Source: Eukaryota sp. GEM-RC1
Lineage: Eukaryota
Direction of reading: 5' to 3'
DNA: 64,000 bases
Assembly (NCBI GenBank): GCA_040285855.1
Contig: JAUFOQ010000004.1
Span: forward strand, 744,001 to 808,000
Position numbers and translations under genes: made by a program
Shown here: positions 4,775 through 63,269 of the stretch, in pieces
Position numbering within the stretch: position 1 is the stretch's first letter
How the letters are laid out: every line of letters starts with the position of its first letter
The notes under the pieces: model-generated
What the model saw: the letters and a program-made list of their open reading frames with translations, nothing else
What the model was told of the DNA's origin: nothing
Database searches by the model: none

Positions 4775-5019
4775 AAAATATTTAAAAAAGAAATTATTAA
4801 AAATTTACTCTATGTGTATCGTTTTGGTTTTGCTTCAGGGAATATCCTAGTGACTGAAATGACAAATCGGGTTCAACCAAACATAATCCTTCAATTATAG
4901 TTAGAAAGAAGGAATGATCAATCACTCCAGATGACGTGTAAGACCATTCACTGTTTAATCTCTTAATCAAATGAGTTATGAGAAGAAACAGTGAGATAAA
5001 AATTTATTAGAAGATAAAT

Positions 5020-8372: not shown

Positions 8373-8420
8373 TGCTTGGAGGGGAAATTTCAATTTTGGG
8401 CTTTGAATTTGCTGTTTATG

Positions 8421-8520
8421 AATCCGAAGATTCAATAATGCTACAGATTCACTGTAGTAAATATAGGCTATGACTATGACTATGACAAATAACTGGGTCT
8501 AACTCCTAGACCCCGCTCCA
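8421..8520 (-). ncRNA. Putative Fanzor omegaRNA (scaffold to 8441, then flank-derived guide CATTATTGAATCTTCGGATT)
   Basis: Conserved with 39421-39498 up to a sharp breakpoint; hairpins GGGTCTA-ggagt-TAGACCC and CTACAG-tgaat-CTGTAG; 5' limit unknown. Confidence 0.55.
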
Positions 8521-10020
8521 AATGATGCTCCACAATGGTCTTGATGTTGATACATGCTAACTTGTTACGATTTTAAACCTTGGCGCTACCATGACATTCT
8601 TCTCTACATTCTTGGGACTTGCATCTCAACAAAGCGTGACACTTTATCAAAGGTTTCTTCTCTCTTTTCCATGGTTTTGGATTACTGATTTCTTTGAACA
8701 CTTTAACTGCCTTCCAACAAGTCGGACACTTTGAAGACGTGTAACTCTCATCTACCAGTACAATATTGTAACCATTTCTCTTAAAGAAGTTTCTCCAACC
8801 AACACCTCCACTTGATCGGAGATGTTTTAGGTTCTGCATCTTATTACCATTGTCACCAAACATCAATACACTGTCGTTTTTATTCCATCCTTTTTCAGTC
8901 ATATTTTTCCACAACTTACTTTCTGTTTTTTGAATTTGGACGTATCTTTACATTTTTTGAATGCGCCATATCATCAAACAGTAGTAATCAAATGTTGATT
9001 CAATAACTGTAAGCTTGGAACCCACATAGTCATAGAACGTGTCATAAACGGTCGACTTTGAATTTTCTTTCGAAATTTGACTCTTCTTGTTCAGCCGTTT
9101 TTCCATCTTGGAGAATGAATTCTTTTTTCTTTCCTCTTCTGAACTTTTGATGAATCCTTGACCATCTGGACCATTCTGTCTCTGTCAATCTTAGCCACTC
9201 ATATTCTTTGTCTCTTCTTTCTCGGACTTTTTTGTTCAGGAAATGGCCTATTTACTTTCTCTGAACAAACATAGAGTAAATCTGATTTTCCAGGGTCAAT
9301 AAACACTTGTGTTTTCAATGAAAACTCTTCAATATCATAGTCTTGAACATATTCTTCTTTACTGGAGAACTTTGTACTATCTGGTTTAAATGACATTCCC
9401 ACACAGTCCTCTCTAGTTAGTTCAACACAAGCAGAGAAACCATCAGTTTTAATGGTATTGTTAAACTTATAACCTTTCTTTATAAACGAAGGATTAAAGT
9501 TGAAAAAGTAAGACCAGAATTGATTTTGTTCAGCAGGAGAATTTCAGCTTTTGTGTTCCACTCAGACATTTTTTTCTTGACGTTCACTTGTTTTGTTGAC
9601 AAAGTGGAACGTAATATTCCCCAAAGACCTTGTGTGTCTGTTTCAAAGAAGCCTAGTGTGACGTGACGAACAATCGGAATTACATTGTAAGCACTTGCTC
9701 CTTCACTTTCAAGATAGTTATCTATTTGAATCGCAGATTTCATAAAGGACTGAGGATGTTCAGGAACTGATTTTGATTTTAGTAGAGAATTAATGACTTT
9801 CTTTTTATAAACACCTTTTGAAGTTTGAATGTCAATTGACGGTGGGAGAAGTTCTGTGGTGAAGAATTTCTGCATTACATCTTTGAATAAAGTATTGTAT
9901 TTTTACAGTGGTTTTTGGAATATCATTTCTGTTACCTTCAAGAAAAACATTTTTAACTTGTCTAAGTCTCCAACGAAAAACAGATTGTTCTTTTTTTGAC
10001 ATTTTTTCTTCTTGATCAGT
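8441..10020 (-). pseudogene. Fanzor (TnpB-like RuvC nuclease), 5'-truncated decayed copy 2 of the element at 34280-39498
   Basis: Collinear with ~37830-39498: KTDGFSACVEL, VFIDPGKSDLL, LVDESYTSSKCPTC, HALLRC, NRNKLACINIK. In-frame TAA replaces the W and Q codons of copy 1. Cut at 10020 by a LINE. Confidence 0.9.
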
Positions 10021-10436
10021 TTTTTTTAAAATACACAGTTTTATTATAAATGCAATAGATCAACCAACTAAAATTTGATATCATTAAAACAACACCCGTC
10101 GCTATCAAACCTTACAACAGCGTTGTCCTCATAAATGGCACTCACTGCAAATAAAGCTTTGGAGATGATTAGGGGAACTGTTTTAAAACAGTAAAAACGA
10201 TCCGATTCAACCATAACATAAAATCAAAACGTTTGCTCATCCTATTTTTTACGATTTTTCCGAAATCGTTTAAACAATTCAATGCACTTTTTCCTAAACG
10301 TCCGTAAATTGGAAACAGCAAAAGGGCATAATTCATATTCAACATGTTTTACATGTGTTAAAGCCATCAATGGTTTCTTGTACTTATCCTGTTTAGCCTG
10401 TTCAGAAAAGTCTAAAGGAGAAGTTTCAGACGAAGC

Positions 10437-11967
10437 TAGGGATGCGAAAAAATATATTGTTATTGTATTTATTGCAATAAATATTCACAATAAATTTATT
10501 GTTGGTCAAAACAATAACAATATATTTATTGTGAGTCCCAGCAATAAATAATAATATTGCAATAATATTGTTTATTGTGGCAATAATTTTCATCACTAAA
10601 ATCATCCATCTGTTAAAAAAAATAGAGAGAATTTATTCGGCACCCAATAAGGTAACCTTCCTACAAACTATGAAATTGTAAAAACAAACAAATAATACTA
10701 AGATTAAATCCAAACGACTTCATCACCACCCGGTAAAAGATTACGTTTATCAACATTAACCTTCACACCAAACTTGTACAATTTCTCAATTAATCTAGAG
10801 AAATAGAAAGGCATATTCCGATATATGGAAAACACAATACGGTTTTTCCATTCAGCCATTCTAAACTTACGCTTCTTTTCTTTACACAATTCTTCAAAAT
10901 CCTTGAAAAATTGATCACCAGCAGGACTAATTGATCCAAAAGAGAAACATCAAAAGGTTGAAACACAAATTTGGAATATGAGTTTCTATTTAATTCTTCT
11001 ACTTGAGAGTCATACTTGGAGTGTTTGAGCTTTTCAGCAGCTGTTAACGGGTTAAAAGAAGAATCTAATATCCTACTAACACAAGATTTGTTACATACAT
11101 CTACTGTAGTAAAATCCATTAATGATTGACTCGATTTAAGCCACGGAGTATGTAGATCCCCTCTTTTTGATTCCATCTGTTTGATGTTACATGCAATTTT
11201 GCTTCCATTTGGGAGTAAGAAGATGTGTTGTGGGAGAAGTAGTCCTCTGAAGAGCTTTCACTTCAGGAAAAACAACCTAGACAAAAGAGTATAATATTTG
11301 TTTAAGTCAAATTGAAGACTGTTTGGCTTTTAAACTGCCGTAGTTCAACAAAGTCTAAACGGCAATCAAGAACTGATGACCGTAAGAGTGGGAAACATTC
11401 AGAAGAACTTTTTGCGTGGGACATACCAAGCAAGTCGAACGACTATTTAGTCGTGCTAACGTGACTACTGAAACCCTTCGCAAAAGACTATATACATCAA
11501 GTCTGGAAAAACAACTTTTTTTGAAAAAAAACGGATTTATGTGCGGAGAAAAACACATAATAAGAAAACAATAAATAAATGAACACTATTAAAACAAATT
11601 ATCAAACGAACTACCTAATTTCGAAAGGTACTAGTAGTTGCCTCCAAACAACTTGGACAAAATGGAATCAACATATCTTTTATTGATGTATAACTCTCAT
11701 CTATGGTGAAGATACTGTTCGCAAAAGTCGTAATACTAACCCTTGACTTGGTTGTTGGACAGTGAAGGAGATTTTACGGATGATGGCGAATAGACCACAA
11801 CAAAAAGGAGTCAACGGATTGCGTAGAAATATTGCCAATATATTTATTTATTTATTTGCAAACTTGACAATACCAATATTTTTATTGTTGGCCACAACAA
11901 TAACAATACATTTATTATCGTCGTGAACAATAATTTATTTAAATAAATATATTTTTTCGCATCCCTG
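10437..11967. mobile_element. Non-autonomous hAT-type TIR element
   Basis: TIR (T/C)AGGGATGCGAAAAAATATATT at both ends; 8-bp TSD GACGAAGC at 10429-10436 and 11968-11975. Confidence 0.9.
10631..11180 (-). mobile_element. 5'-truncated CRE-like LINE, family B, nested in the hAT element
   Basis: RGDL..DFTTVDVC..AAEKLKHSKY..FQPF..EWKNRIVFSIY; near-identical copy at 43211-43690. Confidence 0.75.
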
Positions 11968-12732
11968 GACGAAGCGTTCTTTAAAGATGTCTTTTTACAA
12001 ACATCCACTGACACTACATCAACAACAAACAATTTGTCTGAAGAAGAAGGGACAACAACATCTGCTCTCCGTTGACAACTATTAATTGGGTCTAAAGATC
12101 TTCGAAGTGGTTCAACAAATGATTCAATTTTATAAGACTTACAAATAGAATATATTTACCTGTTTATATCATTTTCATTGTTAATTCCAGTGATCGTCAA
12201 AATATAGAACTTTTAGGCAACTTTTTAGACAACTCCGTAACTAGGAGTTGGATACTACTCCGTATCTTTATTTCCAAAGATAATCTAATATGAGCAAGAT
12301 GTGAAAGATATGATGTTGACGACGCTGCTAAGACGGGGATGTCAGGGGTATCAAAGGAAATATATCCGGTATATGTGAAGTCAAGAAAGAAGGTAATACA
12401 ACTTCAAGTTGATGATCAAAAGATGTTATCAGAATGAACGCCAGCAATACGACAGTTTATTACCAAAGAGAACTACTGATAGATGCGACAGACAATGTGT
12501 CATATGGGAAAAAGGGAGGAAAATGTCGGACCGTGAAAAGTGCACACTATATAGTTTTACGCTATCAGTTTTTTGCTTTAATGATATTGAGTTCTAGTAC
12601 ATGTATTTGTGTTTACTTTAGTGTTTTTGTTCCATAAAAATGAAGCTATACAGTCATGGTCAAACCTCTATAATTTCTCCCTCCATAACTGCTCAGTCCC
12701 AAACATCTTGAACTTTGACATCACTTGTGAAC

Positions 12733-14229: not shown

Positions 14230-14759
14230 ATCCAATTTTTTGGTAAACGGAGAGCAGATGTTGTTGCCCCTTCTTCTTCAGACAAATTGTTTGTTGTTGA
14301 TGTAGTGTCGGTGGATGTTTGTAAAAAGACATCTTTAAAGAACGCTTCGTCTGAAACTTCTCCTTTAGACATTTCTGAACAGGCCAAACAGGATAAGTAC
14401 AAGAAACCATTGCTAGCTTTAAAACATGTAAAACATGTTGAATACGAATTATGCCCCTTTGCTGTTTCCAATTTACGGACGTTTAGGAAAAGTGCAATGA
14501 ATTTTTTAAACGATTTCGGAAAAATCGTAAAAAAATAGGATGAACAAACGTTTTGATCATATGTTATGGTTGAATCGGATCGTTTTTACTGTTTTAAAAC
14601 AGTTCCCCTAATCATCTCCAAAGCTTTATTTGCAGTGAGTGCCATTTATGAGGACAAAGCTGTTGTAAGGTTTGATAGCGACGGGTGTTGTTTTAATGAC
14701 ATCAAATTTTAGTTGTTTGATCTATTACATTTATAATAAACTCTAATTTTTCAAAAAAA
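14230..14759 (+). mobile_element. 5'-truncated CRE-like LINE, family A, with poly(A) and TSD
   Basis: RLE C-terminal motifs; poly(A) at ~14753-14760; 13-bp TSD AGTATTTTGTCAG at 14217-14229 and 14760-14772. Confidence 0.85.
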
Positions 14760-23217: not shown

Positions 23218-23591
23218 CTTGACAATATTTAACACAATTTTTGATTGAGTGGAGAAATTAAGTGTTACTGTATGTAAGTGACTTCAACAAAACATGAGTA
23301 AGTGAGTGTACACGAGTAAAATTCAAGTGCAGCGCCACGTTAATTTTATTAGAGAGACATCACCTTGAAATACCAGAATAAAAAACGGATTTTTGTACAG
23401 AGAAAAACACACAGCAAGAAAACAATCAAATAAATAAAGACTATTAAAAATTAAAACCAGAATTGGAATCAATTAATTTGTACTGATACAAATAACACAA
23501 TTAAATCAAATCAAATCTTGCACATAGCCTATTTTGATACTTCTAGTGTTGAACCATCACTTATAGGATGCAAGTTTATTAGAAAATGAAG

Positions 23592-24963
23592 CTACAACAA
23601 CTCAAGAACACAACTATGATTAGCCAAATACCCAACAAGATGGTAGTTATCATTATCTAAAGAACTAATTTCTCTTGTACAATTAAATCCAGGGTCTGAC
23701 TCTTTTGTAACAGTAATTGAATTATTCACAAGATTAATTGTGATTTCAATGATTTCATTTCGGTTCCATTTTCCATTAGGGGTTCCTGACGGATAGAAGT
23801 TATTCCTATGACTGTAAAAACAATGAGCATTTGGCTTTGAGTAAACACCACTACAATCAAACTCTTTTCTAGGAATAATTCCAATCATTAGTTGATTAGA
23901 AACAGACGAAGGAGTGCCATTCCTAGCCCTAACTTTATAGACATTTCCTGTAAGAAGAGGAGTTTCTGAAAGAACATTGGACCAGCCTGAACCATTGTGA
24001 GTAACAGTTTTTCCTCCATTTGAAATATTTAAATTTTGACTTTTGATATCAGATGAAAAGGAAAGAACTGAAGAATCAACAGGTTTTGCACATGTATCTT
24101 GTTTTTCAACATTTTCCTTCAATTTAAATATTTCTTCATCTTTTTGCTTAATTAATTCAGTTGCTTCAACCAATTGTTCTTTTAACGTCAAATTTTCAGA
24201 AATTATTGACTCGAAAAATATCGGACGTAATTGTTTAAAGTGAAACTTCATCAAAACTTCTTCCAAATTTGAAATATTCTCAAGAGGATTTAAAAACAGC
24301 CCATCCCAGTCTTTAAAAAGTCAACAGGTTAACGTCAACAAGGGTCAGAATTTGAGATAATTCTTCAGAATTTATAGTTTCTGATTTAACTGAAGCCACA
24401 AGTGACTTAAAAAACCATTTGAAAGAACTTGAAGAAGTGCAAAATTCGAGTAAACTTTGGAGAAAGACAAATGGGAAGACAAATTCAGATTTTTCACAAA
24501 TATTTTCAATTTCTGTAAGAAAATCTCCAACAAATTTTAATCCTCTCAAGTCTTCTTGTTCAACACACTTTGTCAAGAACTTGCTGCACCAGTCCCAATT
24601 GGTCATTTTTGAAGGGAGAATCTCCATAAGAGTAGTTTTAAGATGATCACACTGGAAGTAAGTAGCAAGGTAGAAAATATCATAGACGTTGGAAGAAGTG
24701 AGGTCGATGGTGTGACCAAAGAAGGACGAGATGAAGGCGGAGAAAGACTCAAATGATATGGGCAAATGCGAGAAGTCCAAAGGGTTCTCAAAGCGATCTC
24801 CAAACTCCATAAACCAAAGAGAGAAGAAGTACTGAGAGTTGGAAGCAAGGACTGACTTAATGACAGAGAAGGACTCATCATTAAAGATAATGGTTTGATC
24901 ATGGAGATCAGTGTTGGATTGGAGTGTAGAGAGAGTGTTGGGTGAGGTGGATGTGAGTGACAT
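23592..24963 (-). CDS. BTB/POZ - coiled coil - SPRY protein, copy 2 (one frameshift in a homopolymer at ~24315)
   Basis: ORFs 24313..25011 and 23592..24266; same domains as copy 1. Confidence 0.8.
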
Positions 24964-25935
24964 TGAAGGAGAGATTTGAATTTTGTATATTTCTATCAAT
25001 TCATGGTGCAATGAGATTGCCTAGTCGACAGTTAGAGATGATGTCATCAATGTAATGCTTAGTATGAGGGTTAGATTTGCCATACAATGATTAAATTTTA
25101 GCAATATATACATACGTTCTGTCACAAACTGAATCTGCATATAACACAACTTTATGATATGGTATGGCTTGTCAAATTCTAAACTAGTTCGGCTTCGGCT
25201 TGAGCCATTTGAGTAAGCCAAGCCAAATTTGGATATGAATTGGTCAAGTCGATCGTCTTACGGCTTGAGCCGAACCGTTTGACAGCTCTAACATAACATT
25301 ATTAAAAGCTATTTTATGATTAATGAAGTACGACCTGATCTCGATCTTCCTTTGGATGATTGAAGCATTTTATCACTTCAAAAAGTTTAGACAACAGCTG
25401 GTGGATTTATTATTGAAATTTTGTTCAATCATTAGATTTACATTTGTATAGAACATTATAAACTTCACAACCAGAAGCATATTCTTCACTCTGCTTGTTT
25501 CACGACCACGATGGTATGTGACAGTAGTCGGTGGTCTTTGTTATCGATCTGATGTCTACCACCACTGATGCTACGAGGGCTTAAAAATCATATGCATCGT
25601 AATTCTTATCTTTGTCAAAACAACCTAGAAATCAAACAGAACATTCATCTGTACTAAATCTCACGGCAACTGTTTGCTTATACAAATAATTAAAGTAGCT
25701 ACTGAATTATTAACAAGAATTGCTATAGAGTGTTAGTGTAATGGCGTATTAGCCTATTTGTACCTTTATGAATTCACTTTTCTTTATTCATATGACTAAG
25801 ACCAACAAGAGGGTGTAAAGATAATGCCATCCAAATGTGCCGACACTTTTGATCGGAACGGTTGTCCATTTTTTCCTCAAAGAGAATTTGTTGCTACAAG
25901 TAAAAATTGTTACACTGATATTGCAACGTCTTGAT

Positions 25936-29301: not shown

Positions 29302-30660
29302 TTAAAAGCCCATTCTACTACCGTGTAACGATTTAATTGACTCTTTTGTTTCACTGTCAATAGGGTTGCCGAAAAGAAGAATTGATGAAACAGATGTGTT
29401 CACCTTTAAAGCCTCTGCAAGTGCCACAGCACCCTCATTTCCAATAGAGTTTTGATATAGATAAATCGTAGATAGAGCCGAATTCACCTTTATAGCCTCT
29501 GCAAGTGCCACAGCGCCCTCATTTCCAATAGAGTTTTGGTAAAGATACATCGTAGAAACCGAGGAATTCACCTTTAATGCCTCTGCAATCGCAACAGCTC
29601 CTTCCTCTCCAATGGGGTTTCTGTCCAAACAGATCTCTGAAACAGATGAAGTCACCTTCAGAGCTTCAGCAACTAGTTTAACATCCTCAGGACCAATAGA
29701 CATGTTACTTAGATTGACTTCAATGATTGTATTATTTATCATTGAATCACAACAATTCTTCAATGAGGAACCTGGGGTTAAACCAGGGGTTAGAGAACTG
29801 AGGTTAATGGAGGAAGAACCTGGGTGGAAGGTCAAACCACTTGTTGTGGGTTGACCAAGAAAGGCACCAGTACCGAAAGTTCCAGCAGTAGTACTGGGAG
29901 GATTGTTGCCAAAAGAACTACTAGTACCGAAGGAAACAGACTGTGGGGGAGATGATTTGCCAAAGGAACCAGAACCGAAAGTTCCAGCAGTAGTACTGGG
30001 AGGATTGTTGCCAAAAGAACTACTAGTACCGAAGGAAACAGACTGTGGGGGAGATGATTTGCCAAAGGAACCAGAACCGAAAGTTCCAGCAGTAGTACTG
30101 GGAGGATTGGTGCCAAAAGAACTACTAGTACCGAAGGAAACAGACTGTGGGGTTGATGGTTTGCCAAAGGAACCAGAACCGAAAGTTCCAGCAGTAGTAC
30201 TGGGAGGATTGGTGCCAAAAGAACTACTAGTACCGAAGGAAACAGACTGTGGGGTTGATGGTTTGCCAAAGGAACCAGTACCGAAAGTTCCAGCAGTAGT
30301 GCTGGGAGGATTGGTACCAAAAGAACTACTAGTACCAAAGGAAAGAGACTGTGGGGGAGATGGTTTACCAAAGGAACCAGCACTGAAAGTTCCAGTGGTA
30401 GTACTGGGAGGATTGTTAACGACAGAACTACTAGTACCAAATGAAACAGACTCTGAGGCAGAAGAGGGTTCAAGTGGTTTCGGATCTTGGGGGGAAAACT
30501 TTGGAACAAAAAAGGCATGTTTCTTCAAAGGAGAAGATACATGGGATCTTAAAGGTTCTGAACGGTGAGTCACTCGAAAACAATCATCGCATAGGTCAGA
30601 ATCACATTCAGCGCAATTAACAGTTGAAGGAGTTTGCTTACATTCGATGCATTGAGACAT
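29302..30660 (-). CDS. B-box zinc finger + FG-rich tandem repeats + ribonuclease-inhibitor-type LRRs
   Basis: CIEC..CAECDSDLCDDCFRVTH..H; 34-aa repeats; 28-aa LRRs such as LYQNSIGNEGAVALAEALKVN. Confidence 0.85.
   Translation of the reverse strand: MSQCIECKQTPSTVNCAECDSDLCDDCFRVTHRSEPLRSHVSSPLKKHAFFVPKFSPQDPKPLEPSSASESVSFGTSSSVVNNPPSTTTGTFSAGSFGKPSPPQSLSFGTSSSFGTNPPSTTAGTFGTGSFGKPSTPQSVSFGTSSSFGTNPPSTTAGTFGSGSFGKPSTPQSVSFGTSSSFGTNPPSTTAGTFGSGSFGKSSPPQSVSFGTSSSFGNNPPSTTAGTFGSGSFGKSSPPQSVSFGTSSSFGNNPPSTTAGTFGTGAFLGQPTTSGLTFHPGSSSINLSSLTPGLTPGSSLKNCCDSMINNTIIEVNLSNMSIGPEDVKLVAEALKVTSSVSEICLDRNPIGEEGAVAIAEALKVNSSVSTMYLYQNSIGNEGAVALAEAIKVNSALSTIYLYQNSIGNEGAVALAEALKVNTSVSSILLFGNPIDSETKESIKSLHGSRMGF
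29855..30452 (-). repeat. 102-bp coding tandem repeat, ~6 units
   Basis: Unit SVSFGTSSSFGTNPPSTTAGTFGSGSFGKPSTPQ. Confidence 0.95.
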
Positions 30661-32698: not shown

Positions 32699-33539
32699 GT
32701 CTTCGCAGTAATTTTAGGAGTGCAGTAATTTTATATACGGACATGAAAAACTTTTACGAACAAATCTGCTTTGGGAGTGTTTAGTGGATTACTATTCAGC
32801 TTCTACTAACGATTACAAATCTGAATTAGACCAAATTCAACGTCGTCGGCAGACTGTACATGATTCTCAAGTATCAGATGAGATTGTTGATGTCAATGCT
32901 GAAAGTTTAGGGAAGTGTTCCCCAAATTTGGGGAAAATGTAGCAGATCAGTAGTTCTTGTTTTGTTTTAATTTTTTGTTTTATAAATGGATTTAATCTTT
33001 GTATTGTTTGTTTGTTTTTGCACTCACTTTCATCGTTTTTTCCATCATACAATGGCCTGTACCCTAGATCAAGATTTTAGTGACTGTCATTACAAATGTT
33101 GTCATTACAAATGTTGAACAAAATCAACATCTATGTGTGGAAAATGTAGCAGTAATTGTTATGTTTTGATTTATTTATAAGGCATTGCGGTGTTCAACAA
33201 AAATAAATGTAAATAGGGACGTGTTGGAGTGAGTATCACCATGATGTGTCCAATTTCTTGCATTGGAATCAAAACAGTCCCAATCTTTCATTCAAAAGTG
33301 TGAAGATGAGAAGAGTTTTGACAGAGTGCATATGACGGTGGAGTTAGCTGTAGTGGTTCGTAACACTGGGAAGCTGGGAAGAAGCTAAATAAACACAGTG
33401 AAAGATCACGATTGAAAGGATCTTCACCTTTTAAGATCATAGGGAGGTGTGTTCATGAAGAGAAGACCAGTACAACATATGATGAAGATGCCATAATGTC
33501 AAGTTGTCAGTGTCAACATCAGCTATAAATAGTTGAAAT

Positions 33540-34214
33540 CAGGGATGTTAAAAAATATATTTTTATTTTATTTATTGCAATAAATATTATTTATTTATTT
33601 ATTGTCAGCAGCTGGATCAACAATATATTTATTGTCTCAAATCGCAATATGCAATAATATTGCAATATATTGCAATATTGTGACAATATATTTTCATTGC
33701 AAATATCGAACTTTCTTCATTTCAATTCTTACAGTACTGTCTCAATTTTGTAACCAAGGATACAAACAGTTGATCATACCATCATGTAACAAAATTGAAA
33801 GATTGTTCAGTCGAGCAAAGCTTACTACTGGCACTCTTCGATCACGTTTACACCCTTCAAGCCTTGAGAAACAGTTACTTTTACTCTACAACTCCCAACT
33901 TTGGAATGAAGAGACTGATCGAAGAATTCTCCTCCACAATCCTTTTCAAGATTTGTTGCACTAAGATGGGGATGTAATAGATGAAGAATAGATTATACTA
34001 CGATAGCAATTTTTCACTGATTGATCATAAACCCGGTTTTTCTACATTATACCAGTACTAAAGTTGCAGCAGATAATAATGTCAATAAATATATTTATTT
34101 ATTGTGATGCCCGACAATATCAATATATCTATTGCAAGCCCACACAATATCAATATATTTATTGCAAGCCCACACAATATTTTATTTATTTAAATATATT
34201 TTTTAACATCCCTG
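33540..34214 (+). mobile_element. Non-autonomous hAT element with a dimerization-domain remnant
   Basis: 23-bp TIR CAGGGATGTTAAAAAATATATTT; 8-bp TSD GTTGAAAT at 33532-33539 and 34215-34222; PSCNKIERLFSRAKL..RSRLHPSSLEKQL. Confidence 0.93.
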
Positions 34215-34222
34215 GTTGAAAT

Positions 34223-37200
34223 CTTTTTGACCTGTATCTCATTGCCTTTTTCGCTTCCAAACACTGCAAAGTGTTTCGAATGATAGTAACAGGATTCAGT
34301 TACTCGCACTATCACTCGTCGTTTTTCAACAGTCGTTTTAATCAACAGTCATCTCAGTTTTGTCATGACCTAACCACGGACGGAGGCATAGAGTCCAATC
34401 CAGGACCTCCTCTTACAGATGACCTTAGAGATGAGCAACTGAGACCCGTTTTTGCACCAAACGTAGACAATATCGAGACGTTAGAGCCCAACGTCTGGGT
34501 TAATGATGATGTCATCGACTTATACGGTGATTTTCTTACAAAAAGCAGCAAATGTTGTCAGTACTTTCCAATCAATGACCTGCTTGGTGCTTCTGGTGTT
34601 TATGATTTTCAACTATTGTTAAAAAAAATTCGAATACCTAATAACTTCAATGAATGTTTGTGTTCCGAAGAAACGATTCATATTCATGCCAATCAACGAT
34701 GGCCTTGTCGGTAAAACACCGACTCATTGGACACTTCTAATTTGCGATATTAAGATTAGACGACTTTTTTCAATCGATTCAACGTATACTGAAGAGGAAC
34801 ACTTCAAACATCTGGCGAATACAATTCGAGCTTCTCGCAATGAAAAAGTAGTCCAACGTTTACAGCAAGATTTGTTTAATGACGCACAGTATTTGTATAT
34901 GGATAAACTAGTTGTAAAGCAAGAGCAAACTGAAAACGATTGTGGACCTTTTATTCTATTGTACATTCAAAAGTTTGTTACCTTAACAGACTCATATATT
35001 GATTGTTCATCTATCGATTTTAAGGAAATTTTAACCAAACTTGTAACTAGCCAAGACTATGATGCTTTAAAAATGAGGAAAGAAGTTTTGACTCATATTT
35101 CGACTACTCAATCAGCAGAGAGGGCTAAACGTGCTAGAGAAATCTTAAACAAATTCTTTTCCGTTTATTCGACACCTTCTCAACAGCGTCGTAAACCCAA
35201 AAACCAGATGCAAGAAAGAAAAAAGGTCCTAAAACTAAACAACCGGCCAAAAAAAGAAAGAAGACTGCTAATACTTCTCAATCTCCCGGTCCATTGTGCC
35301 ATATCACTGAAAGTAAATCTTGCTAGGTTCAAGGGACTAAAAACATGGAACTCGCCGTTTGATTTATCTGAACCTTCTACACTGATATCATCTACTCATG
35401 AAATTCCAGATCCTAACAAACTGACAAAAACTCAATTACAAGAGGTTTCAGAAGCAATCAAATCGTTGTCATCTGAAGAATCGATTGCAGAAGAATGTGT
35501 CAATTGGTACTCTCGTCATTTGATGGACATATACAAAGTTGATTTCAATGCCTTTGTAGCTTCTGGATCACTTCAATCATATTTAGTTGATGAAACTCAA
35601 TCTCTCCACGAGTTTTTCATGAACAAGATTCTTCAGACAGATTCCAGATATCTTTTTGTTCCAATAAATGATGCAATGACTGGTTTACATTGGGGTTTGA
35701 TTGTAATTGACAAAAATGATCTACAAGTAATATTTCTCGATCCTCTTTATAATGTTGAAGATCACAGGCAGGATGTTGATAAAAATTTAAATGAAATTGA
35801 CTCTTATTTGAATCAAGATATTTCAAAAATACATGAAATTCTTCATCAACTCCAGTTTCAGCTCATTATTGTCCCAGTGCTACAGAAACAAACAGCAAAT
35901 GATTGTGGAGTATATGTTCTTCAGTTTATGCGAGGACTTATAGAACTTCTGACTTCAAACCAATTCACAGATCAATCTCTTCTCCATGCTGCTGATAGAA
36001 TGATACAACAACCTATCAATACTAGGGAGAGTAGACAAGAAATAAAAGTGTACCTTCAATCTCTACAACCTCCTACAAGTAGAAACCGCATATCTGGACA
36101 AACCAAAATTAAGCGAACATGCAAATATCCGGTGAAAAAAACTGACAAAGTTGCTCAAAAAAAAGTCAAAAAGGATTATACGAAAGCCCAGTGATTCTGA
36201 TATAGAGGTTCCAAATGTGACTCATAAAGAATTTCTAAATAGTTTACCAGGTGATTTGTCTAACCGACAAAGAGACGTCGCTTGAAGTTGCACATGATAC
36301 AACACGCACTTCAAGAAGCTGAACAATTGTTTCAGGATTCTTTGATTCGTCCAAAGTTAGAGACTTTAGCTCCAATAGATTTGACAACTCCTAAAATAAA
36401 CGTTGCTGCTTGTGAGAAAACTGAAACCACAAAGACACCAGCTAAGAGTACAACAAAAGTTGGCAAATCCAAAAAGTCAACAACCAAACCAAAGGCAAGT
36501 GGTAAAACTAATGCTACCAAGAGTCTTAAACCTCCTAAGAAACAAATGATTGAGTTTCATTGTAATTCTGAATTACCAGAAGACTCTAACTCTTGTTCAA
36601 TATTGTCGTTTGATATTGAAACAAGAGAAGTTGATCAATTGCCTGTTAAGAAACTTACACAGAAGTTGAATGATCAAAGACATGAACAAAATGAAGTTTT
36701 AAAAAACCAAAGTGATTCAGAAAGAGAAGCTTGGATTGAAAAACAACAAGTGTTTATGATTTCTGGAGTTTTCGGTCATTTTATTAAGGATGAGTTTTAC
36801 CTTCAAGAAAGCTTCGTTGCGACTTCAGAAGAATCAACTTCCTTTTCAAAAGTTGAAAATCCAACTGATTGTCATAGCCTTTTCTTCTTTGAAGATGAAA
36901 AACAGTTACTAGAGTTTTTTGTCAATTATTTGACTGATAAAAATCCATCTGTTTTAACTGGATTTAACATTACTAATTTTGATAATGTTGTTCTAGACAA
37001 TAGAATTGATGCATTTGGAATAGACTTTCCAGAACCAATGCAAGATGATACCACAAAATCACATTTGTCACCTTTATGGCAACGTGTTTGTACTGAATGG
37101 GCTGGTAGAACTGTCTGTGATTCTTACCTCTATGCTAAACAATTCATTGCTACAAAATGTTCAAGATCACTAAGATCACTAAGTTGGTTTTTATTAAATG

Positions 37201-39498
37201 AATCAAAAGGGCATCTCCATGACAAATTCGAACACTTGTTACCTATTGATTGTGTTAGTAGACGACCTCAAGAAGTTCTAAACTATTGTTTCCAAAGACA
37301 GTGTATTAGCATTGAAGTTGTTTTTATTATTTCAATCAAATAAAATAGTTCGTCCCACTTTTGTAACACATAAGACTACACTGAAGTCTATTGTAAAACA
37401 TACAGGACTGGAATTATTGTTGAATTATTATGCTCTATTGGTTCATAAGCTACGGATGCACACTTCTTATTGTTTGAAGCTGTTTTTATTGCATTTAAAT
37501 AAGAATGAGCTTCCACTACCATTAATTTCAAGGAAAGAGGTTGAACACATTCAAACGTTGCTGAAGGAAATCTCTGCTGATCGTCATAAGATTAAACTAA
37601 ACAATGGAAATCCAACAATTAATGACGACTTGAGAACATTTGTTACAAATCAATACAAACAAGTAATGATGGACAATGGTGGTATTCCACAATTTCCAGC
37701 TGCATATTCTCCACGACTTATGGCAATGGTAGGTGAAACAATCAAAACAAATTTGAACACCAATATTAAAATGCGATATCCTCAGTACATTGACAAATTT
37801 ATTAATGTTTGGTTTGAAAAGAATAGTGTTGAAGAAGAAATGTCTAAAAAAGAAAAGTCTGTATTTCGTTGGAGATTGAGACAAGTAAAGAATGTTTTTC
37901 TTCAAAGGAATAGAAACGATATTCCAACGACCACTGAAGAAATACAGGAGTTTATTGAACAATCTAATGCAGAAATTCTTGAAGATGACAGTGAGAAAAG
38001 CTTAAGCATTGCAGATAAAATGCAACTTTTAAGGCAAAGCCACGACACTGTTCTAAAACTGTTCCAAGATAATGTCTGCATTGATATCCTCTTCCCACCA
38101 ACAATTAAAATTCAAAAGTCAAATGGTGATTATGAAGACAAACAGATTGATTCTCTACTTAAAGCAGTACATGAACATCCACAATCGTTTATTAAATCAG
38201 CAATACAGATAAATAACTTTCTTGAAGAGGATGAAGCCAGTACTTACAATATAATTCCGATTGTTCGACACGTGGTTCCAGGCTTCTTTGGAAGTAGACA
38301 CACAAGGTCTTTGGGGAATATTACGTTCCACATTAACCAATCATCAGGTTAAAGAGAAAAAAAACAGATCTGAGTGGAATTCAATTGAGGAAAATTAGGC
38401 ACATGTCTCCTGCCGAACAAAATCAATTCTGGTCATACTTTGTCAATTTTAATCGTCCATTTATAAAGAAAGGCTATAAGTTTAACAATTCTATTAAAAC
38501 TGATGGTTTCTCTGCTTGTGTTGAACTTACCAGAGAGGACTGTGTGGGAATGTCGTTCAAACCAGACAGCGCAAAGTTCTCCAGTACTGATGAATATGTT
38601 CAAGACTATGATATTGAAGAGTTTACATTGAAAACAAAAGTTTACATTGATCCTGGCAAGAAGGATTTACTCTACTTCTGTTCAGAAAAAATAAGAAAGC
38701 CAGAAAATTTAGCCCGTGAAATGAGAAACAAAGAATACGAGTGGCTAAGATTGACAGAAACAGAATGGTCGAGATTGTCCAGAGTCCATCAAAAGTTTAG
38801 AAGGGAAAAGAAAAAAGAATTTATTCTCCGAGATGAAAAAACGGTTGAACAAGAAGAGTCAACATTATCCAAAGAAAATTCAAAGTCAACCGTGTATGAA
38901 ACCTTCTATGACTATGTGGGTTCCAAACTGACAGTTATTGAATCAACATTTGATTACTACTGTTTGATGATATGGCGCATTCAAAAATGCAAAGATATGT
39001 CCATATTCAAAAAACAAAAAGTAAGTTGTTGAAAAATATGACTGCAAAAGGATGGAATAAAAATGACTGTGTATTGATGTTTGGTGACAATGGTAATAAG
39101 AGGCAGAACCTAAAACACCTCCGATCAAGTAGAGGTGTGATGTGGAGAAACTTCTTTAAGAGAAATGGTTACAATATTGTTCTCGTAGATGAGAGTTACA
39201 CGTCTTCAAAGTGTCCTACTTGTTGGGGGCCAGTCAAAGTGTTTATGGAAGTTGACAATCCTCGACCCAAGACACAAGAAGAGAAGCCTACGGTGAAGTT
39301 ACATGCGTTGTTGAGATGTCAATCTGAGAAGTGTAGAGAAGAATGTGATGACAAAGACAAAGTGTGGAATCGTAACAAGTTAGCGTGTATCAACATCAAA
39401 GCTATTGTGGAGCATCATTTGGAGCGGGGTCTAGGAGTTAGACCCAGTTATTTGTCATAGTCATAGTTATAGACTATATTTACTACGTGAATCCGCAG
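34223..39498 (+). mobile_element. Fanzor-encoding element; right end defined, left end not determined, no transposase recognised
   Basis: Homology with the copy at 8441-10020 stops abruptly after GTGAATC(C/T)G(C/T)AG at 39498. Confidence 0.7.
34280..39460 (+). CDS. Multidomain Fanzor polyprotein (~1700 aa once frameshifts are bridged): 2A-like peptide, 2x Ulp1/SENP protease, PolB-type DEDDy exonuclease, Fanzor/TnpB RuvC
   Basis: Six same-strand ORFs joined by single-base shifts. DLTTDGGIESNPGP; PIND..HW..DS..Q..NDCG twice; SFDIET / TGFNITNFD / YCxKD; KTDG, YIDPG, VDESYTSSKCPTC, WNRN..ACINI, RPSYLS*. Confidence 0.85.
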
Positions 39499-39518
39499 TT
39501 ATCTGAGTAATCATCTTT
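39421..39518 (+). ncRNA. Putative Fanzor omegaRNA overlapping the ORF end (scaffold to 39498; guide TTATCTGAGTAATCATCTTT)
   Basis: Hairpin 39427-39445 (GGGTCTA/TAGACCC), stem ATAGTC/GACTAT and terminal stem CTACG/CGCAG; non-coding conservation for 38 nt past the stop in both copies. Confidence 0.6.
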
Positions 39519-39862
39519 TTACAGAAACCACTTCATGCAGTAGTTGTCATTATCATTCACAACACCTGTTGTCTTCATTACATACTATAGCGAAGGTCTA
39601 GGATTCAGTTTAGTAAAGACGTACATACATCTATGAATTATTGATACCAACTAAGAAATTCGATTCGATTTTTATTACAGTTTGAAAGACAAATGAGTAA
39701 GTTACACTGATCACAAACGAAGAAACTAAGTGCTAGAAATTACACATATAATAATTACCATAGCTGTTAAATGGTGGGATGTTTCAAGTAAGATCAAACT
39801 AACTCTTTGGATGACATTGGATCTGCCCAAATTCTATCGTTGAGAGGAATTGCAAAGAAGAT

Positions 39863-40807
39863 CAGTTTATGGAACAAAAACACTAAAATAAACATAAATA
39901 CTAGAATTCAATATCATCAAAGCAACAATCATTGCCATTAAAACACACATCAGATTTTTCTTCATAAAAAACACTGAGAGCTAATAGAGCTTTTGAAATC
40001 ATGATAGGAATTGTTTTAAATATTGTAAAAACAATACGATTCAACCAAAATTTGAAATCAAATTTCTTGTTCATTCTTTTTTTGACCACTTTCTCAAAAT
40101 CAGAGAGAAAACAAAGAGCATCTCTACCAAGTCGACCATAAATTGAAATTGCAAAAGGACATAATTTGTACTCAACATGTCTAATATGTTTGAGAGCAGT
40201 CAGTGGTTCATCATATTTGTTTCTCTTGTATTGTTCTGAAGAATTCAGTGGAGAAACTTCATTTTTAGCATCCTTGAATGCACTTTTTTTGCAAACATCC
40301 ACAGTAATCACATAAACAACGGTTAGTTCATCATTAGCTGATGGAACTATAACATCAGCTCTTCGTTTACCAAAAGTCTTATCAGAATCACTATTTTTGG
40401 AAATTATTGATTTCCAGTGATCTCAACAGTGGCTCAACGAAAGATTCGATTTTGTAGGACTTACACATAGCATGAATTTGATCTCTGACAGCATCATGAA
40501 TACAAGTTCTATAAGTAATGAAACGATTACAACTCAAAAGGTGAGAAAAAGTAACTAATTTACCACATTTGCATTGAAGATCATTGGGTAAATTAGAGGG
40601 CCACAAGAAACATCGAAGTCTGAATGTTGTAGTCCATTGATGATCATTCAACAACAAACCATAAATCTGAGGAATTTGGTTAATCAAAGCAACTGAAGAA
40701 CTGTCCTTCAAATCGATTAAAAAATTTGCGACAGCTGGATTTTTTTCTTTGGCCGAGCCAAGTCGAATTTTAAAATCCAAACATTCAAAATGTTTTAAAA
40801 GGTGTTT
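39863..40807 (-). mobile_element. 5'-truncated CRE-like non-LTR retrotransposon (zinc knuckle + restriction-like endonuclease)
   Basis: CKCG..HLLSC, IHDAVRD, EP, RADV, TVDVC, K..KY, PFAISIYGRLG; 13-bp TSD TTGCAAAGAAGAT at 39850-39862 and 40808-40820. Confidence 0.88.
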
Positions 40808-43210: not shown

Positions 43211-43690
43211 TTTATTCGGCACCCAATAAGGTAACCTTCCTACAAAACTATGAAATTGTAAAAACAAACAAAAAATACTAAGATTAAATCCAAACGACTT
43301 CATCACCACCCGGTAAAAGATTACGTTTATCAACATTAACCTTCACACCAAACTTGTACAATTTCTCAATTAATCTAGAGAAATAGAAAGGCATATTCCG
43401 ATATATGGAAAACACTATACGGTTTTTCCATTCAGCCATTCTAAACTTACGCTTCTTTTCTTTACACAATTCTTCGAAATCCTTGAAAATTGATCGCCAG
43501 CAGGACTAATAGATCCAAAAAGAGAAACAGCAAAAGGTTGAAACACAAATTTGGAATATGAGTTTCTATTTAATTCTTCTACTTGAGAGTCATACTTGGA
43601 GTGTTTGAGCTTTTCAGCTGCTGTTAATGGATTAAAAGAAGAATCTAATATCCTACTTACACAAGATTTGTTACATACATCTACTGTAGA
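43211..43690 (-). mobile_element. 5'-truncated CRE-like LINE, family B
   Basis: Near-identical to 10631-11110; possible TSD ACATTGTAA. Confidence 0.75.
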
Positions 43691-49505: not shown

Positions 49506-50360
49506 CTACTCAGCAAAGGAAACCGTACAAACAAGATAAATATCTTCAGTGCTATCTTCAACGTCATGGAAAGTAACATCATAAGACTTACCAAACGGCA
49601 GCGCTACTAAAAAATTAGCAATACAAAGTCCAACATCCAAAGTCTTTGGGTAATTTGGTGTTTCCCTACCATCGAAAAAGAACGCAACTTGATTATCCTT
49701 AGTTACAAAACGCCAGGACTGTCTGTTAATGGCTGAAGGTGATATCCTGGCTGCTTCCAAAGCAGCGGTCATCCAAGGAAGTTCCATTGTTCTTTCATCT
49801 GATAAAATCAGTGTAGACATGGGTTTTCTCTTCGCTGAACCAGCCATTGTTGAAAGTACTCGCTCACCAAAAGGTTTTGTATCGGTGCAGTATCCAATTG
49901 GAGTGACAGCTAATACGTCCTCGTTTTCAGCGAGATCGTAATATCGTTTAATATTGTCTTTGTACCAAGTTCCTGATATGATACAAGTACCAAGAGATTG
50001 GGCGGTACAGTATAAGACAAAAGCTTCAAGAACGATACCAGCTTTGACACGGGAGAAAGATTGGTTATTGTCGACTATGAGGGTGGCAAATAAGGAAGCA
50101 TTAGCACGGGCAAAACTGGCAAAGATCCCTTTGAAGACAGGAAGATCAACTCTGGCTTCAGAGATTTCTATTCTAATGCCTTCATATGGAGTGAAACTAG
50201 CTGCAAACTCTTTTAGAGAATCAACAACTGATCGAGAAACAATTCGAGAAGTGTCGTAAGATCGACGTGACTTGCGTAAGGGAATGGCCTTTTGAAGATC
50301 GTCATGATGAGGGAAGGTTAACATAAAGCCAAAGAAATAAAGTAAAAAAACAATTAACAT
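49506..50360 (-). CDS. Nitroreductase family protein (two-module, TM1586-like)
   Basis: AIPLRKSRRSY, LGTCIISG, TPIGY, KRKPM, ALEAARISPSAINRQSWRF, LDVGLCIANF; start may be the ATG at 50324. Confidence 0.85.
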   Translation of the reverse strand: MLIVFLLYFFGFMLTFPHHDDLQKAIPLRKSRRSYDTSRIVSRSVVDSLKEFAASFTPYEGIRIEISEARVDLPVFKGIFASFARANASLFATLIVDNNQSFSRVKAGIVLEAFVLYCTAQSLGTCIISGTWYKDNIKRYYDLAENEDVLAVTPIGYCTDTKPFGERVLSTMAGSAKRKPMSTLILSDERTMELPWMTAALEAARISPSAINRQSWRFVTKDNQVAFFFDGRETPNYPKTLDVGLCIANFLVALPFGKSYDVTFHDVEDSTEDIYLVCTVSFAE

Positions 50361-55967: not shown

Positions 55968-57025
55968 TTACAATCTGGTCACTCTGATCAAAGCAGATCC
56001 CAAGACCTCATCAGCTGCTCCATAGAAAACCATGAACTCATTAACACCAACCTGCTTCATGCCCTCGATAAATACAACATTTGGAACCAAGCCTTGAGGA
56101 TTCCTTTCCCAAGCTAACTCAGGTGTTAAAATGGGGACTTCAGACCTTTGAAGGATGTGTGAAGGATCTGTCCCATTGAGAATGAGATAACCTGCGTTGT
56201 ACTGGAGATCATAGCCAGGTCGTACGGAAGGAAATCCTCTACGAGCAGAGTTGTAAATGAACAAATAGTTGCCATCAGACAGAAGAAGCGGTGGAGGACC
56301 AGACTCAACAAGTTCAGAATCAAAATGGTCATTGCGTACTGTCAGAAAGTCATCAATGGTGGTCTTATAACTTATCAAATCATCGGAAACTGCAAAGAAA
56401 GCTTCTCATCCCCCCAGATCAGGTAATGTGGGGAATCTGCTACATCATCTCTTAACAACAGAGCCCCAGACTTTGACCATTTGTTAGTGACAACTGGCCC
56501 ATGTCTCTTCCAGGATTCCTTTATCAAGGGGGTAGTAGTAGTAGCGAGAGCTAGTCTGGAAGTGAGACTTGTTGGTGTCTCTTCAACAGCAGAGTAGAAC
56601 ATGTAGTAAGTTCGATCTTTTGTTCTATACACAATCCGAGGGTCTTCAACTCCATAGTTCTCTTCAGGACCAGACGCTTCAAAGACAACATTTCTGTTGG
56701 TAATCGGAGACAGTCTTATATTACTTATGTTTTCTTCAAGCTTTCCACTTTTCGAAGTGGAGAAGGATGCAGTGACTACAGATTGACCAACTTCATAGGG
56801 AGGTTTAGTGACATTCTGGGATCGTACAAACAGAACATCAATGCTCTCAGTAGGAGATGTATATACTGGGGCATAAGAAGGGTTATACGAAAGCGTAAAG
56901 ACAGACTGAATATCGAGGGGACGTTGCTGGTTGACTCTTTTCAGGGTAACATCATACAGAGGAACTGTGGCCAGACTCACAGAGCACAGAGCCATATACA
57001 TCAAAACCCGAACATCGAATCTCAT
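55968..57025 (-). CDS. Glycoside hydrolase family 130-like (beta-mannoside-active), secreted; break near 56380-56400
   Basis: YGVEDPRIVY, WSKSGA, LVESGPPP, YNSA, GLVPNVVFIEG, YGAAD. Confidence 0.85.
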
Positions 57026-60276: not shown

Positions 60277-60710
60277 GTTTTGAGTTTCGTGAATGATGAA
60301 ACAGTTTGTGAATCACTGGTAGTACCGGTATCACTTGAAAATATTTAACATAATATTTATTGAAGTGTTACCGTATGTGAACGACTTCAAAAAAACATGA
60401 GTAACTGTGTTTACAAGAGTAAAATTCAAGTGCAGCACCACTATAGTGTTGATCTTATTAGAGTGACATCACCTTTAAATACCAGAATAAAAAACGGATT
60501 TATGTACAGAGAAAAACACACAGCAAGAATACAACAAAAAATTAAAGACTATTAAAAATTAAAACCAGAATTGGAATCAATTAATTTGTACTGATAAAAA
60601 TAACACAATTAATTCAAATCAAATCTTGCACATAGCCTGTTTTACTACCTCTAGTATTGAACCATCACTTCACTTACACTTATAGAATGCAAGTTTATTA
60701 GAAGATGAAG

Positions 60711-62088
60711 CTATAACAACTCAAGGACTGAATGTTTCCAATGCAAACACCCAACAAGATGGTAGTTATCATTATCTAAAGAACTAATTTCTCTTGTACA
60801 ATTAAATCCAGGGTCTGACTCTTTTGTAACGGTTATTGAATTATTCACAAGATTAATTGTGATTTGAATAATTTCATTTGAGGGCCATACTCCATTAGGG
60901 GATCCTGGAGAATAGAAGTTGTTGTAAGCACTAAAGAAACAATGAGCATTTGACTTTGAGTAAACACCACCACCACTAACAAACTCTTTTCTAGGAATAA
61001 TTCCAATCATTAGACAATTACGAATAGACGAAAAAGGGCCATTCCTAGCCCTAACTTTATAGACATTTCCTGTAAGAAGAGGAGTTTCTGAAATAACATT
61101 ATACCAGTCAGTTGGACCATGGTGAGTAACAGTTTTTCCTCCATTTGAAATATTTAAATTTTGATGTTTAAGACTAGAAGAGAAACTCAAAACTGAAGAT
61201 TCAACAGGTTTTGCACATTCCTCCTGTTTTTCAACAATTTCCTTCAATTTAAATATTTGCTCATCTTTTTCCTTAATTAATTCAGTTGCTTCAACTAATT
61301 GTTCTTTTAACGCTAAATTTTCAGAAATTATTGACTCAAAAATATCGGACGTAATTGCTTAAAGTGAAACTTCATAACAATTTCTTCCAAATTTGAAATA
61401 TTCTCAAGAGGATTTAAAAACAGCTCATCCCAGTCTTTTAAAGTCAACAGGTTAACGTCAACAAGGGTCAGAATTTCAGATAATTCTTCAGAATTTATAG
61501 TTTCTGATTTAACTGAAGCCACAAGTGATTTTAAAAACCATTTAAAAGAACTTGAAGAAGTGCAAAATTCAAGTAAATTTTGGAGAAAAACAAATGGGAA
61601 AACAAATTCAGATTGTTGACAAACATTTTCAATTTCTCTAAGAAATTCTCCAACAAATTTTAATCCTCTCAAGTCTTCTTGTTCAACACACTTTGCCAAG
61701 AACTTACTGCACCAGTCCCAATTGGTCATTTTTGAAGGAAGAATCTCCATAAGAGTAGTCTCAAGATGATCACATTGGAAGTAAGTGGCGAGGTAGAAAA
61801 CGTCATAGACGTTAGAAGAAGTGAGGTCAATGGAGTGACCAAAGAACGAAGAGATGAAGGCGGAGAAAGACTCGGATGATATGGGCAAATGAGAGAAGTC
61901 CAAAGGGTTCTCGAAGCGATCTCCAAACTCCATAAACCAAAGAGAGAAGAAGTACTGAGAGTTGGAAGCAAGGACTGACTTAATAACAGAGAAGGATTCA
62001 CCATTAAAGATAATGGTTTGATCATGGAGACTGGAGTGTTGGACTGGAGTGTAGAGAGAGTGTTGGGTGAGGTGGATGTGAGTGACAT
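60711..62088 (-). CDS. BTB/POZ - coiled coil - SPRY protein, copy 3 (frameshifted)
   Basis: ORFs 61328..62179 and 60711..61247. Confidence 0.8.
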
Positions 62089-63269
62089 TGAAGGAGAGAA
62101 TTGAATGAAGATTATCTAAGAGATAACAGATCTTTCTATTAGGGATGGCGGCCGGCCCACTTTTTACTCTCGACTTCAAAGGGACGAAAATTCATACTGT
62201 ATCGGTTGTAGGTCAGTCTTTATATTCAAGAGTAGAAGTAACATCACTTCTTGTTTGTTTAACGTAGTGATGTGGAAAATTTATTTAATTATAATTAATT
62301 GAGTTAATTCCCTGAGAATTAATTACATTAATTGTACTTTACTGAAGCCTGGCAAAAAGGCATTGTTGTTTTTACATGTGTCGGACCCATTTGGGATTAA
62401 GAAATCAAACATATAACGACCAGTTATTCTCCCCAAAAGTGATCGGGAAAGATATTTTTTGACATAAACTCCTTTCGTGATCACTCTTGGGATATATACG
62501 TTAGACGAAGTGTATAGTGGATAGTTACACCATCCATCTATTAGCAAAACGAGTGATTTTACAAAATCGTTAAAGAGAGAATTGATGTAAGAACATTCGA
62601 TATGTATGTCTGTACTCTCCTTAGTATATGGTCGGGCAGATTGGCGGTAACAAATGTTTGAAGGTATAACCCATCATATTCAAAATTCTTGCACTTGTTT
62701 TATACAAAGATTGTCTTACGGTCATTCATTCAGAAGTACCGTATCCTTTGATATTATGTTTGAAACACAGAAACTGCTTAAGAAAACCCCCGAATTTAAC
62801 ACTAACTGTGACGGTAAACAAACAGTAGGATGCTGCTCGGTCAAATAGACGAATCTCTATATACCAGCAACAAACTTATCGAAAATATAATATAAATAGT
62901 GTTCACTTGGAACACACAACATCCGACTATTTACTATTTACAGCAATCTCATCTTCTACAAGTGTTACGTTCGACAGAGTTTGAGAGAAAAAGACTCAAC
63001 TTTGTTTTTTTGATGAGCTTGAGTATTTCACAAGTCATGTCTCAAGCCAATCCACTCTCTCGATCACTAAAGTAACTCATGTATTATAGAGAACGAGACC
63101 AATGAAGTTTACTTTCCGGCAATTTCTCTATATGTATTTATATTTTGTTTAATTTGTTTTATTTTGTTTTATTTGCATATTCTTCAAAAAGGCCCAAAAA
63201 GAAATAATAATACAAATAAATACAATTCATTAGAATTTGTATTTATTTATGAGGAGCCCTGGATATACT

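Follow-up and report, generated by a model that had tools for sequence, protein, structure and literature searches.

A multi-copy protist Fanzor1 gene with a predicted omegaRNA tail and an apparently undescribed exonuclease, Ulp1 and 2A-like architecture

The closest described systems to the locus reported here, a repeated Fanzor gene in a 64,000-nt stretch of Eukaryota sp. GEM-RC1 (contig JAUFOQ010000004.1, positions 744,001 to 808,000; hereafter the window), are the Fanzor1 nucleases SpuFz1, GtFz1 and PpFz1 with their guide RNAs, termed omegaRNAs. The SpuFz1 omegaRNA is described as a 75-nt scaffold of two stems followed by a guide of 14-15 nt derived from the flank of the element, and the GtFz1 omegaRNA as overlapping 17 codons (PMC10432273). 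The first stem-loop (SL1) measures 7 bp in all three solved Fanzor1 omegaRNA structures (PMC11423790), and leaders of 5-7 nt precede SL1 in the published Fanzor1 omegaRNAs (PMC11423790, Table S3). In the solved RNAs, SL1 is followed by separate stems, with a short stem adjoining the guide (PMC11423790, PMC10432273).

The window contains two copies of one gene, copy A on the forward (+) strand and copy B on the reverse (-) strand. An original prediction, made from the sequence alone, had flagged 100 bases of copy A (39421..39520) as an omegaRNA scaffold and guide boundary; they form the tail common to copies A and B, both broken, of this repeated protist Fanzor gene. The locus resembles SpuFz1 (PDB 8gkh, PMC10432273) in the position of the RuvC-II glutamate beside a zinc finger, in a predicted two-stem scaffold of about 75 nt and in a variable flank guide. 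It differs in that the SpuFz1 RNA lies after the stop codon, inside 30-nt inverted repeats, whereas the RNA predicted here extends over about 12 codons of the gene, and inverted repeats were not found. A further difference is that SpuFz1 is described as a stand-alone protein of 638 residues with a D-E-D triad, whereas the window gene is fused and carries D-E-N. The original prediction had treated overlap with the 3' end of the open reading frame as established for these RNAs, which is true of GtFz1 but not general, the SpuFz1 RNA lying downstream of the stop; its placement of the guide in the flank directly outside the element agrees with SpuFz1. With both GtFz1 and PpFz1 the locus shares a perfect 7-bp SL1, which follows a leader of 5-6 nt in those RNAs, and with GtFz1 the D-E-N triad and the codon overlap; the second stem of PpFz1 is a minimal one of 4 bp (PMC11423790). 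No sequence identity between those RNAs and that of the window is apparent by eye, and neither an exonuclease nor Ulp1 or 2A is mentioned in the parts of PMC11423790 concerned with GtFz1 and PpFz1. As a further predicted case of a design already published, the omegaRNA is ordinary, whereas the Fanzor1 variant with an exonuclease-Ulp1-2A architecture is apparently undescribed. The best explanation overall, and a probable one, is that the shared tail of a multi-copy, fused Fanzor1 gene would supply an omegaRNA scaffold followed by a guide from the flank.

Two gene copies and their shared right end

The Fanzor1 coding region of copy A spans 37354..39460 (+) and is interrupted, in the sequence as assembled, by three frame breaks (near 38288, 38390 and 38990), with further ones upstream of the Fanzor part. 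Copy B is a remnant (8480..10011, -) that is 83% identical to copy A across 1416 columns with 29 gap positions. It contains premature stops, frame breaks and an internal deletion and is without the 5' half, its homology to copy A stopping beside a repeat at 10020. By its sequence, the gene is a Fanzor1. The best matches among PDB entries were SpuFz1 (8gkh, E value 2e-22) and PpFz1 (9cf0), and a family-profile search returned SpuFz1 at 4e-33 and PpFz1 at 5.5e-31, with weak N-terminal stretches aligning as well, so that the similarity takes in the REC/WED region. The last frame matched the Pfam family Cas12f1-like_TNB at an E value of 1e-4, below the family cut-off.

The catalytic residues of copy A lie on the + strand in IDPGK (RuvC-I aspartate, 38646-38660), DESYTS (RuvC-II glutamate, 39188-39205), directly before the zinc finger CPTC/CQSEKC (39212-39334), and WNRN (RuvC-III asparagine, 39365-39376). 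Both copies retain the aspartate and the glutamate, and asparagine occupies the third catalytic position. WNRN was found in 21 of the 25 proteins examined; the remaining four end earlier. Because GtFz1 is reported to cut with a D-E-N triad and the D606N substitution raised SpuFz1 activity (PMC11423790), the asparagine does not indicate decay. Predicted proteins assigned to Eukaryota sp. TZLM1-RC, TZLM3-RCL and GEM-RC1 are the close relatives, the last two strain labels being those of skoliomonad metamonads (PMC11316075). Besides the two window copies, 23 related proteins are named from TZLM3-RCL, 8 from a second organism and 4 from a third.

The two copies share a right end. In copy A the TAG stop codon ends at 39460 and the last base common to both copies is 39498, the corresponding positions in copy B being 8480 and 8441. 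The post-stop tails of 38 nt (A) and 39 nt (B) match in 34 of 39 columns, with four substitutions and one indel, and their alignment score is 56, whereas none of 5000 random pieces of the window exceeded 17. Beyond the breakpoint, 2 of 15 ungapped positions match between the flanks. This pattern confirms the claim of the original prediction that the copies stay alike for about 38 nt past the stop and then part. We lean clearly towards a predicted element and scaffold end exactly at 39498. Inverted or direct matches of the right end within 32700-34400 did not exceed random expectation (p 0.11-0.98). A canonical Helitron (Helitron1), whose 3' end is defined as CTRR after a subterminal hairpin (PMC3627910), was considered and rejected: the copies end in GCAG and GTAG, and the copy B hairpin closes on the last base.

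Other repeated sequences lie close to both copies. Related repeats occupy 10020-10436, 14344-14759, 39900-40375, 10632-11109 and 43211-43689, one of them at the end of copy B homology and one 400 nt past copy A. We take their frames to resemble the restriction-like endonuclease tail of non-LTR retrotransposons; the pieces tested gave no Pfam match. Directly 5' of the copy A frame is a small element with terminal inverted repeats (33540-34214, +), flanked by an 8-bp target duplication (33532, 34215), and pieces related to it occur at 10438-10593 and 11828-11968. Its remnant frame, without a Pfam match, resembles the end of a hAT transposase.

Predicted scaffold and guides

The shared tail quite likely encodes a Fanzor omegaRNA scaffold. 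In copy A the predicted scaffold of about 78 nt spans 39421..39498 (+) and in copy B 8441..8519 (-). Its start near 39421, and with it its length, was set from the 5-7-nt leaders of three published RNAs, and the 5' end could reach 39404. The SL1 candidate is a 7-bp hairpin at 39427..39445 (+; GGGTCTA-GGAGT-TAGACCC) within the codons for R-G-L-G-V-R-P, with an identical equivalent in copy B (8495-8513, -). The original prediction had noted this perfect hairpin inside the last codons, and it holds for both copies. The computed pair probability is about 1 for six of the seven pairs. Perfect stems of at least 7 bp with at least 4 G/C per arm gave 11 entries in the window, two of which are the SL1 of A and B.

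The hairpin falls within the longest stretch over which the copies are identical, 64 nt at 39404..39467 (+); the next longest is 52 nt. Synonymous differences affect none of the 18 informative codons in the 64-nt stretch but 21 of the other 103 codons of the last frame (P ~0.017). Copies A and B represent two subfamilies, both found among the named relatives. Of the eight related proteins with a complete end, six agree in all of their last 18 residues.

The 3' stem region (39478..39498, +) could adopt a terminal hairpin in the register 39483-39498, which is broken in A and perfect in B, or an alternative hairpin at 39478-39492, which is weak and invariant, has 6 bp and places the indel in its loop. 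In the case of copy B, the scaffold closes with a perfect 6-bp hairpin (8441-8457, -6.2 kcal/mol) that ends on the last base. At the gathering threshold, Rfam returned no match in the window, and the exact 19-nt SL1 hairpin had none in metagenome contigs.

The A/U-rich linker between the two stems (39446-39478, +) carries hexamers repeated imperfectly on either side of the stop codon. The C-terminus ...YLSLSLS of one related protein suggests that the hexamer repeat varies or reads through, and a protein from another organism ends in ...YLSQVIVFY, resembling the other reading frame of the window at the linker.

Placed by the breakpoint, with a length taken by analogy, the predicted 15-nt guides would be 39499..39513 (+) for copy A and 8426..8440 (-) for copy B. 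The latter overlaps a hairpin with a perfect 6-bp stem and a C(UUCG)G loop (8419-8434), which lies 6 nt beyond the break. One of its arms repeats 7 nt of the element end, and the hairpin may thus have arisen by templated insertion at the junction or may form a third stem of the scaffold. The likely start codon of a WD40-repeat gene running in the same direction (8372, -) follows 68 nt after the end of copy B, and the copy B guide is therefore probably host promoter or leader sequence. The original prediction had proposed that empty sites matching each guide would reveal the target-adjacent motif; within the window neither such sites nor the motif were found. The best non-self matches of the two guides carry 3 and 2 mismatches and are, by rough estimate, probably due to chance. 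The further view of the original prediction, that two natural guides make the scaffold directly reprogrammable, overstates the case. By analogy with the ghost loci of S. punctatus, a precedent for broken copies as guide donors (PMC10432273), the broken window copies could still supply guides in trans.

A larger gene upstream of the nuclease

The copy A Fanzor is the 3' part of a 5.2-kb frame, and the order of parts in the window and in relatives is a 2A-like motif, Ulp1, Ulp1, a basic linker, an exonuclease and Fanzor1. The original prediction made no mention of the exonuclease, Ulp1 or 2A-like parts. PolB-type DEDDy exonucleases are characterized by Exo I (D-x-E), Exo II (N-x-x-x-F-D) and Exo III (Y-x-x-x-D). 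A PolB-type 3'-5' exonuclease domain at 36600..37320 (+; PF03104, E value 8.6e-17) abuts the Fanzor start and carries FDIET (Exo I, 36609-36623), GFNITNFD (Exo II, 36960-36983) and YCFQ/D (Exo III, 37281-37320), the last spanning a frame break. Its nearest solved domains are those of Pol delta (E value 6e-7) and herpesvirus polymerases, and the ESM Atlas match scored 0.94; no match was found in GenBank phages. The Exo III helix runs directly into the first Fanzor strand, which by eye resembles the SpuFz1 start as listed in Table S3 of PMC11423790, and the exonuclease-Fanzor junction in the window matches that of relatives across one frame break.

Upstream, two Ulp1 (C48) SUMO-protease domains occupy 34623..36194 (+; PF02902, E value 1.3e-21, two stretches), with His/Cys motifs at 34725/34926 and 35688/35889. 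The 2A-like motif DGGIESNPGP lies at 34379..34408 (+), one residue off the consensus GD(V/I)ExNPGP; relatives carry DGDVEANPGP. The motif alone is described as insufficient for activity, a permissive upstream tract being needed (PMC3708506). Among the 25 proteins an exact 2A motif was present in 3 and Ulp1 motifs in 5, both subfamilies being represented.

Relatives support the fusion as a single gene. A relative of 1846 residues maps onto 35553-39454 with its parts in that order, and a weak alignment places its 2A region at 34328-34624 in a sister copy. In TZLM3-RCL, 11 of 23 proteins contain all three Exo motifs and 9 hold these and all three RuvC motifs in one chain. The spacing from Exo III to RuvC-I in the 12 proteins with both anchors is 451 residues in six, 463 in five and 438 in one. 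This near-fixed spacing argues against chance joining by the gene finder. Three lineages that share 43-55% identity all retain the Exo I-III motifs. One model of 2027 residues also contains a DEAD/DEAH helicase, which was probably joined to it from an adjacent gene during gene prediction. An AlphaFold2 model of a 940-residue relative, built on a 21-row alignment, reached a mean predicted local distance difference test score (pLDDT) of 37 and was not used.

Searches beyond these organisms returned little. Relatives of the locus numbered 0 among 299 metagenome pattern matches and 0 among 53 in viral contigs, and a word-index search with the fused region recovered solely three already known clusters among 7016 candidates of 704-2242 residues. 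With the whole protein, the ESM Atlas returned unfused Fanzor-like clusters alone (0.76, a lead only). No reverse transcriptase domain was detected in the element. In literature searches, no natural Fanzor fusion with an exonuclease, Ulp1 or 2A was found among the matches listed. Passage searches of PMC3627910, PMC10530073, PMC13565253 and bioRxiv 2023.08.09.552727 gave 0 occurrences of the word 'exonuclease', and YCFQD and WNRNK are absent from the first 400 characters per cell of Data S1 of PMC10530073, whose Fig. S1B, listing extra Fanzor domains, may bear on novelty.

All three kinds of accessory part are known from mobile elements: P and piggyBac carry DEDDh nucleases (PMC3627910), non-LTR elements carry N-terminal 2A-like motifs (PMC3708506), and the Ginger paper mentions Ulp1 21 times (PMC2836005). 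Unlike those elements as described there, the window gene has all three parts on one chain with an RNA-guided nuclease. Engineered fusions of exonucleases to Cas9, Cas12a and SpuFz1 (PMC13434818, PMC9226073, PMC8945719, PMC13370227) likewise combine a cutting nuclease with an end-processing exonuclease; they are artificial, whereas the family in the window is natural and its exonuclease is of the 3'-5' PolB proofreading type.

Alternative readings and proposed role

Several observations weigh against the explanation favoured here. The breakpoint rests on two copies, neither of which is intact as a gene, and 32700-34400 yielded neither a left end nor a terminal repeat or target duplication. The statement of the original prediction that the flanks diverge completely was slightly strong: over 15-40 nt they retain a faint similarity (p 0.04-0.11 in global and 0.09-0.34 in local alignment), and a small hairpin is present in each of them, 5-6 nt beyond the breakpoint. 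Its terminal hairpin stands in copy B and is broken in copy A, where one pair is mismatched and one base missing; the last 18 nt of copy A fold solely into a different 3-bp hairpin (-1.3 kcal/mol), and imposing a stem of the copy B type is energetically unfavourable. For the 3' end there are three competing folds, and two alternative folds fit both copies. Whole-scaffold folding is only modestly better than that of shuffles (z score -0.6 to -2.7 in four folds), and 0 of 13, 15, 27 and 16 pairs are compensatory in four structures of the two sequences, a test without power because there are two sequences and SL1 is invariant. Since a 52-nt identical run is present in plain coding sequence, the 64-nt run is weak evidence on its own. 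The two other related proteins with a complete end carry P-to-H, which must break an SL1 pair, and R-to-S in the same 3' arm (codon positions taken from the window sequence). As for the fused parts, the window 2A-like motif has G in place of the consensus D, and no transposase domain appeared among the Pfam matches of the element or its relatives. Because T5 (5') exonuclease on SpuFz1 is reported to have lowered editing (PMC13434818), an added nuclease is not automatically useful.

Three other accounts of the tail were weighed. The omegaRNA may be real with an element and scaffold end about 20 nt further out, beyond a third small hairpin, so that the named guides would be scaffold. The UUCG-capped 6-bp hairpin 6 nt past the copy B break leaves room for this; it is the sole one of more than 3 bp among the two C(UUCG)G hairpins listed in the window, copy A has a 3-bp GNRA-capped hairpin from 39504, and global alignment of the flanks gave p ~0.04 for 20, 30 and 40 nt. 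Local alignment of the flanks was not significant and needs several gaps within 20 nt, as compared to 29 gap positions in 1416 in the gene; perfect 6-bp hairpins with any loop are expected here at about 0.15 per 30 nt, and the hairpin observation was made post hoc. We regard this end as rather improbable. A scaffold of about 95 nt, closed by a stem of 39405-39411 with the last 7 nt and enclosing SL1, is very doubtful. Consensus folding of the two copies over 100 columns yields this structure, which is also the best fold for copy A (z -2.7), and the closing stem starts where the 64-nt identical run starts. Both terminal C/T differences face G in this stem (G-C vs G-U), a fit that is uninformative because C-to-T opposite G is always tolerated. 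In copy B the stem is unfavourable, at -7.3 versus -17.0 kcal/mol for SL1 plus the terminal hairpin, and the solved Fanzor1 RNAs are described as SL1 followed by separate stems. It is also improbable, though less so, that the tail is kept for recognition of the DNA end, for example as a Helitron-like hairpin end, or by recent descent, with the guide RNA no longer made. The missing covariation, the modest folding scores and the two broken genes would fit, and Helitron-borne Fanzors with 3' hairpins and 5'-truncated copies are described (PMC3627910). The end is without CTRR, however, synonymous sites are frozen solely over the hairpin, Fanzor1 elements tested in the publications consulted made such RNA, and DNA-end and RNA roles need not exclude each other.

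The remaining alternative concerns the exonuclease, for which RNA trimming is the main alternative to trimming of DNA ends. The domain may act on RNA, trimming the 3' end of a read-through transcript and so setting guide length, or it may be a passenger without a role for Fanzor. In favour, a guide taken from the flank has to be trimmed at its 3' end, the Fanzor N-terminus follows the domain without a gap, and some DEDD-family enzymes are RNases. Its best matches are DNA-polymerase proofreading domains, as given above, and the Exo motifs kept across the three lineages argue against a passenger. Unfused Fanzors are also reported to obtain trimmed guides in yeast (PMC10432273). Taken together, action on RNA or a passenger role is unlikely, though the strongest of the competing accounts.

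Returning to the favoured explanation of a scaffold ending at 39498, the RNA would comprise a 7-bp stem over the last codons, an A/U-rich linker and a short 3' stem, followed by a 15-nt guide from the flank. By analogy with described Fanzors, the element transcript would be trimmed to an RNA of about 90 nt, which would load on Fanzor protein from an intact copy elsewhere and direct a cut at the element-free allele, where repair would restore or spread the element. Homing by cutting and repair is stated to be demonstrated for TnpB and IscB, not for Fanzor (PMC13565253). Among the weakest steps proposed, the fused 3'-5' exonuclease would chew the cut DNA ends and prevent simple rejoining, the Ulp1 domains would remove SUMO from the protein or from local chromatin, and ribosome skipping at the 2A-like motif would shed a short leader. 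Only tentatively, and at somewhat less than even chances, might this be a natural all-in-one RNA-guided cut-and-trim enzyme, in which Fanzor1 with a scaffold of about 78 nt is fused to an active exonuclease within a SUMO-protease polyprotein opened by 2A skipping, the exonuclease processing the enzyme's own cuts or maturing its guide, and the element spreading maybe without its own transposase.

The window contains further features apart from the Fanzor copies. Three copies of another sequence (5000-6388, 23218-24981 and 60334-62106) are 89% identical, two of them encoding a BTB/POZ domain, and a duplication between 22-28 kb and 59-63.5 kb spans several blocks. Tandem 102-nt repeats at 29860-30465 lie in a frame that also matches B-box and leucine-rich-repeat families. 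A nitroreductase (PF14512) is encoded at 49506-50360 (-), and 56375-57025 (-) gives a weak glycoside phosphorylase match (PF04041). Both families are mostly bacterial, and the two genes are possible lateral acquisitions.

The main interest of the locus is the protein that the omegaRNA would serve, not the RNA itself. Exonucleases have been engineered onto Cas9, Cas12a and SpuFz1 to alter repair outcomes, with mixed results, and this family seems to have evolved such a fusion. Both active sites seem, from the aligned proteins, to have been retained in lineages sharing 43-55% identity. Records of a related organism include full-length open frames, and this makes the fate of the DNA after the cut, and the persistence of the family without an evident transposase, testable.

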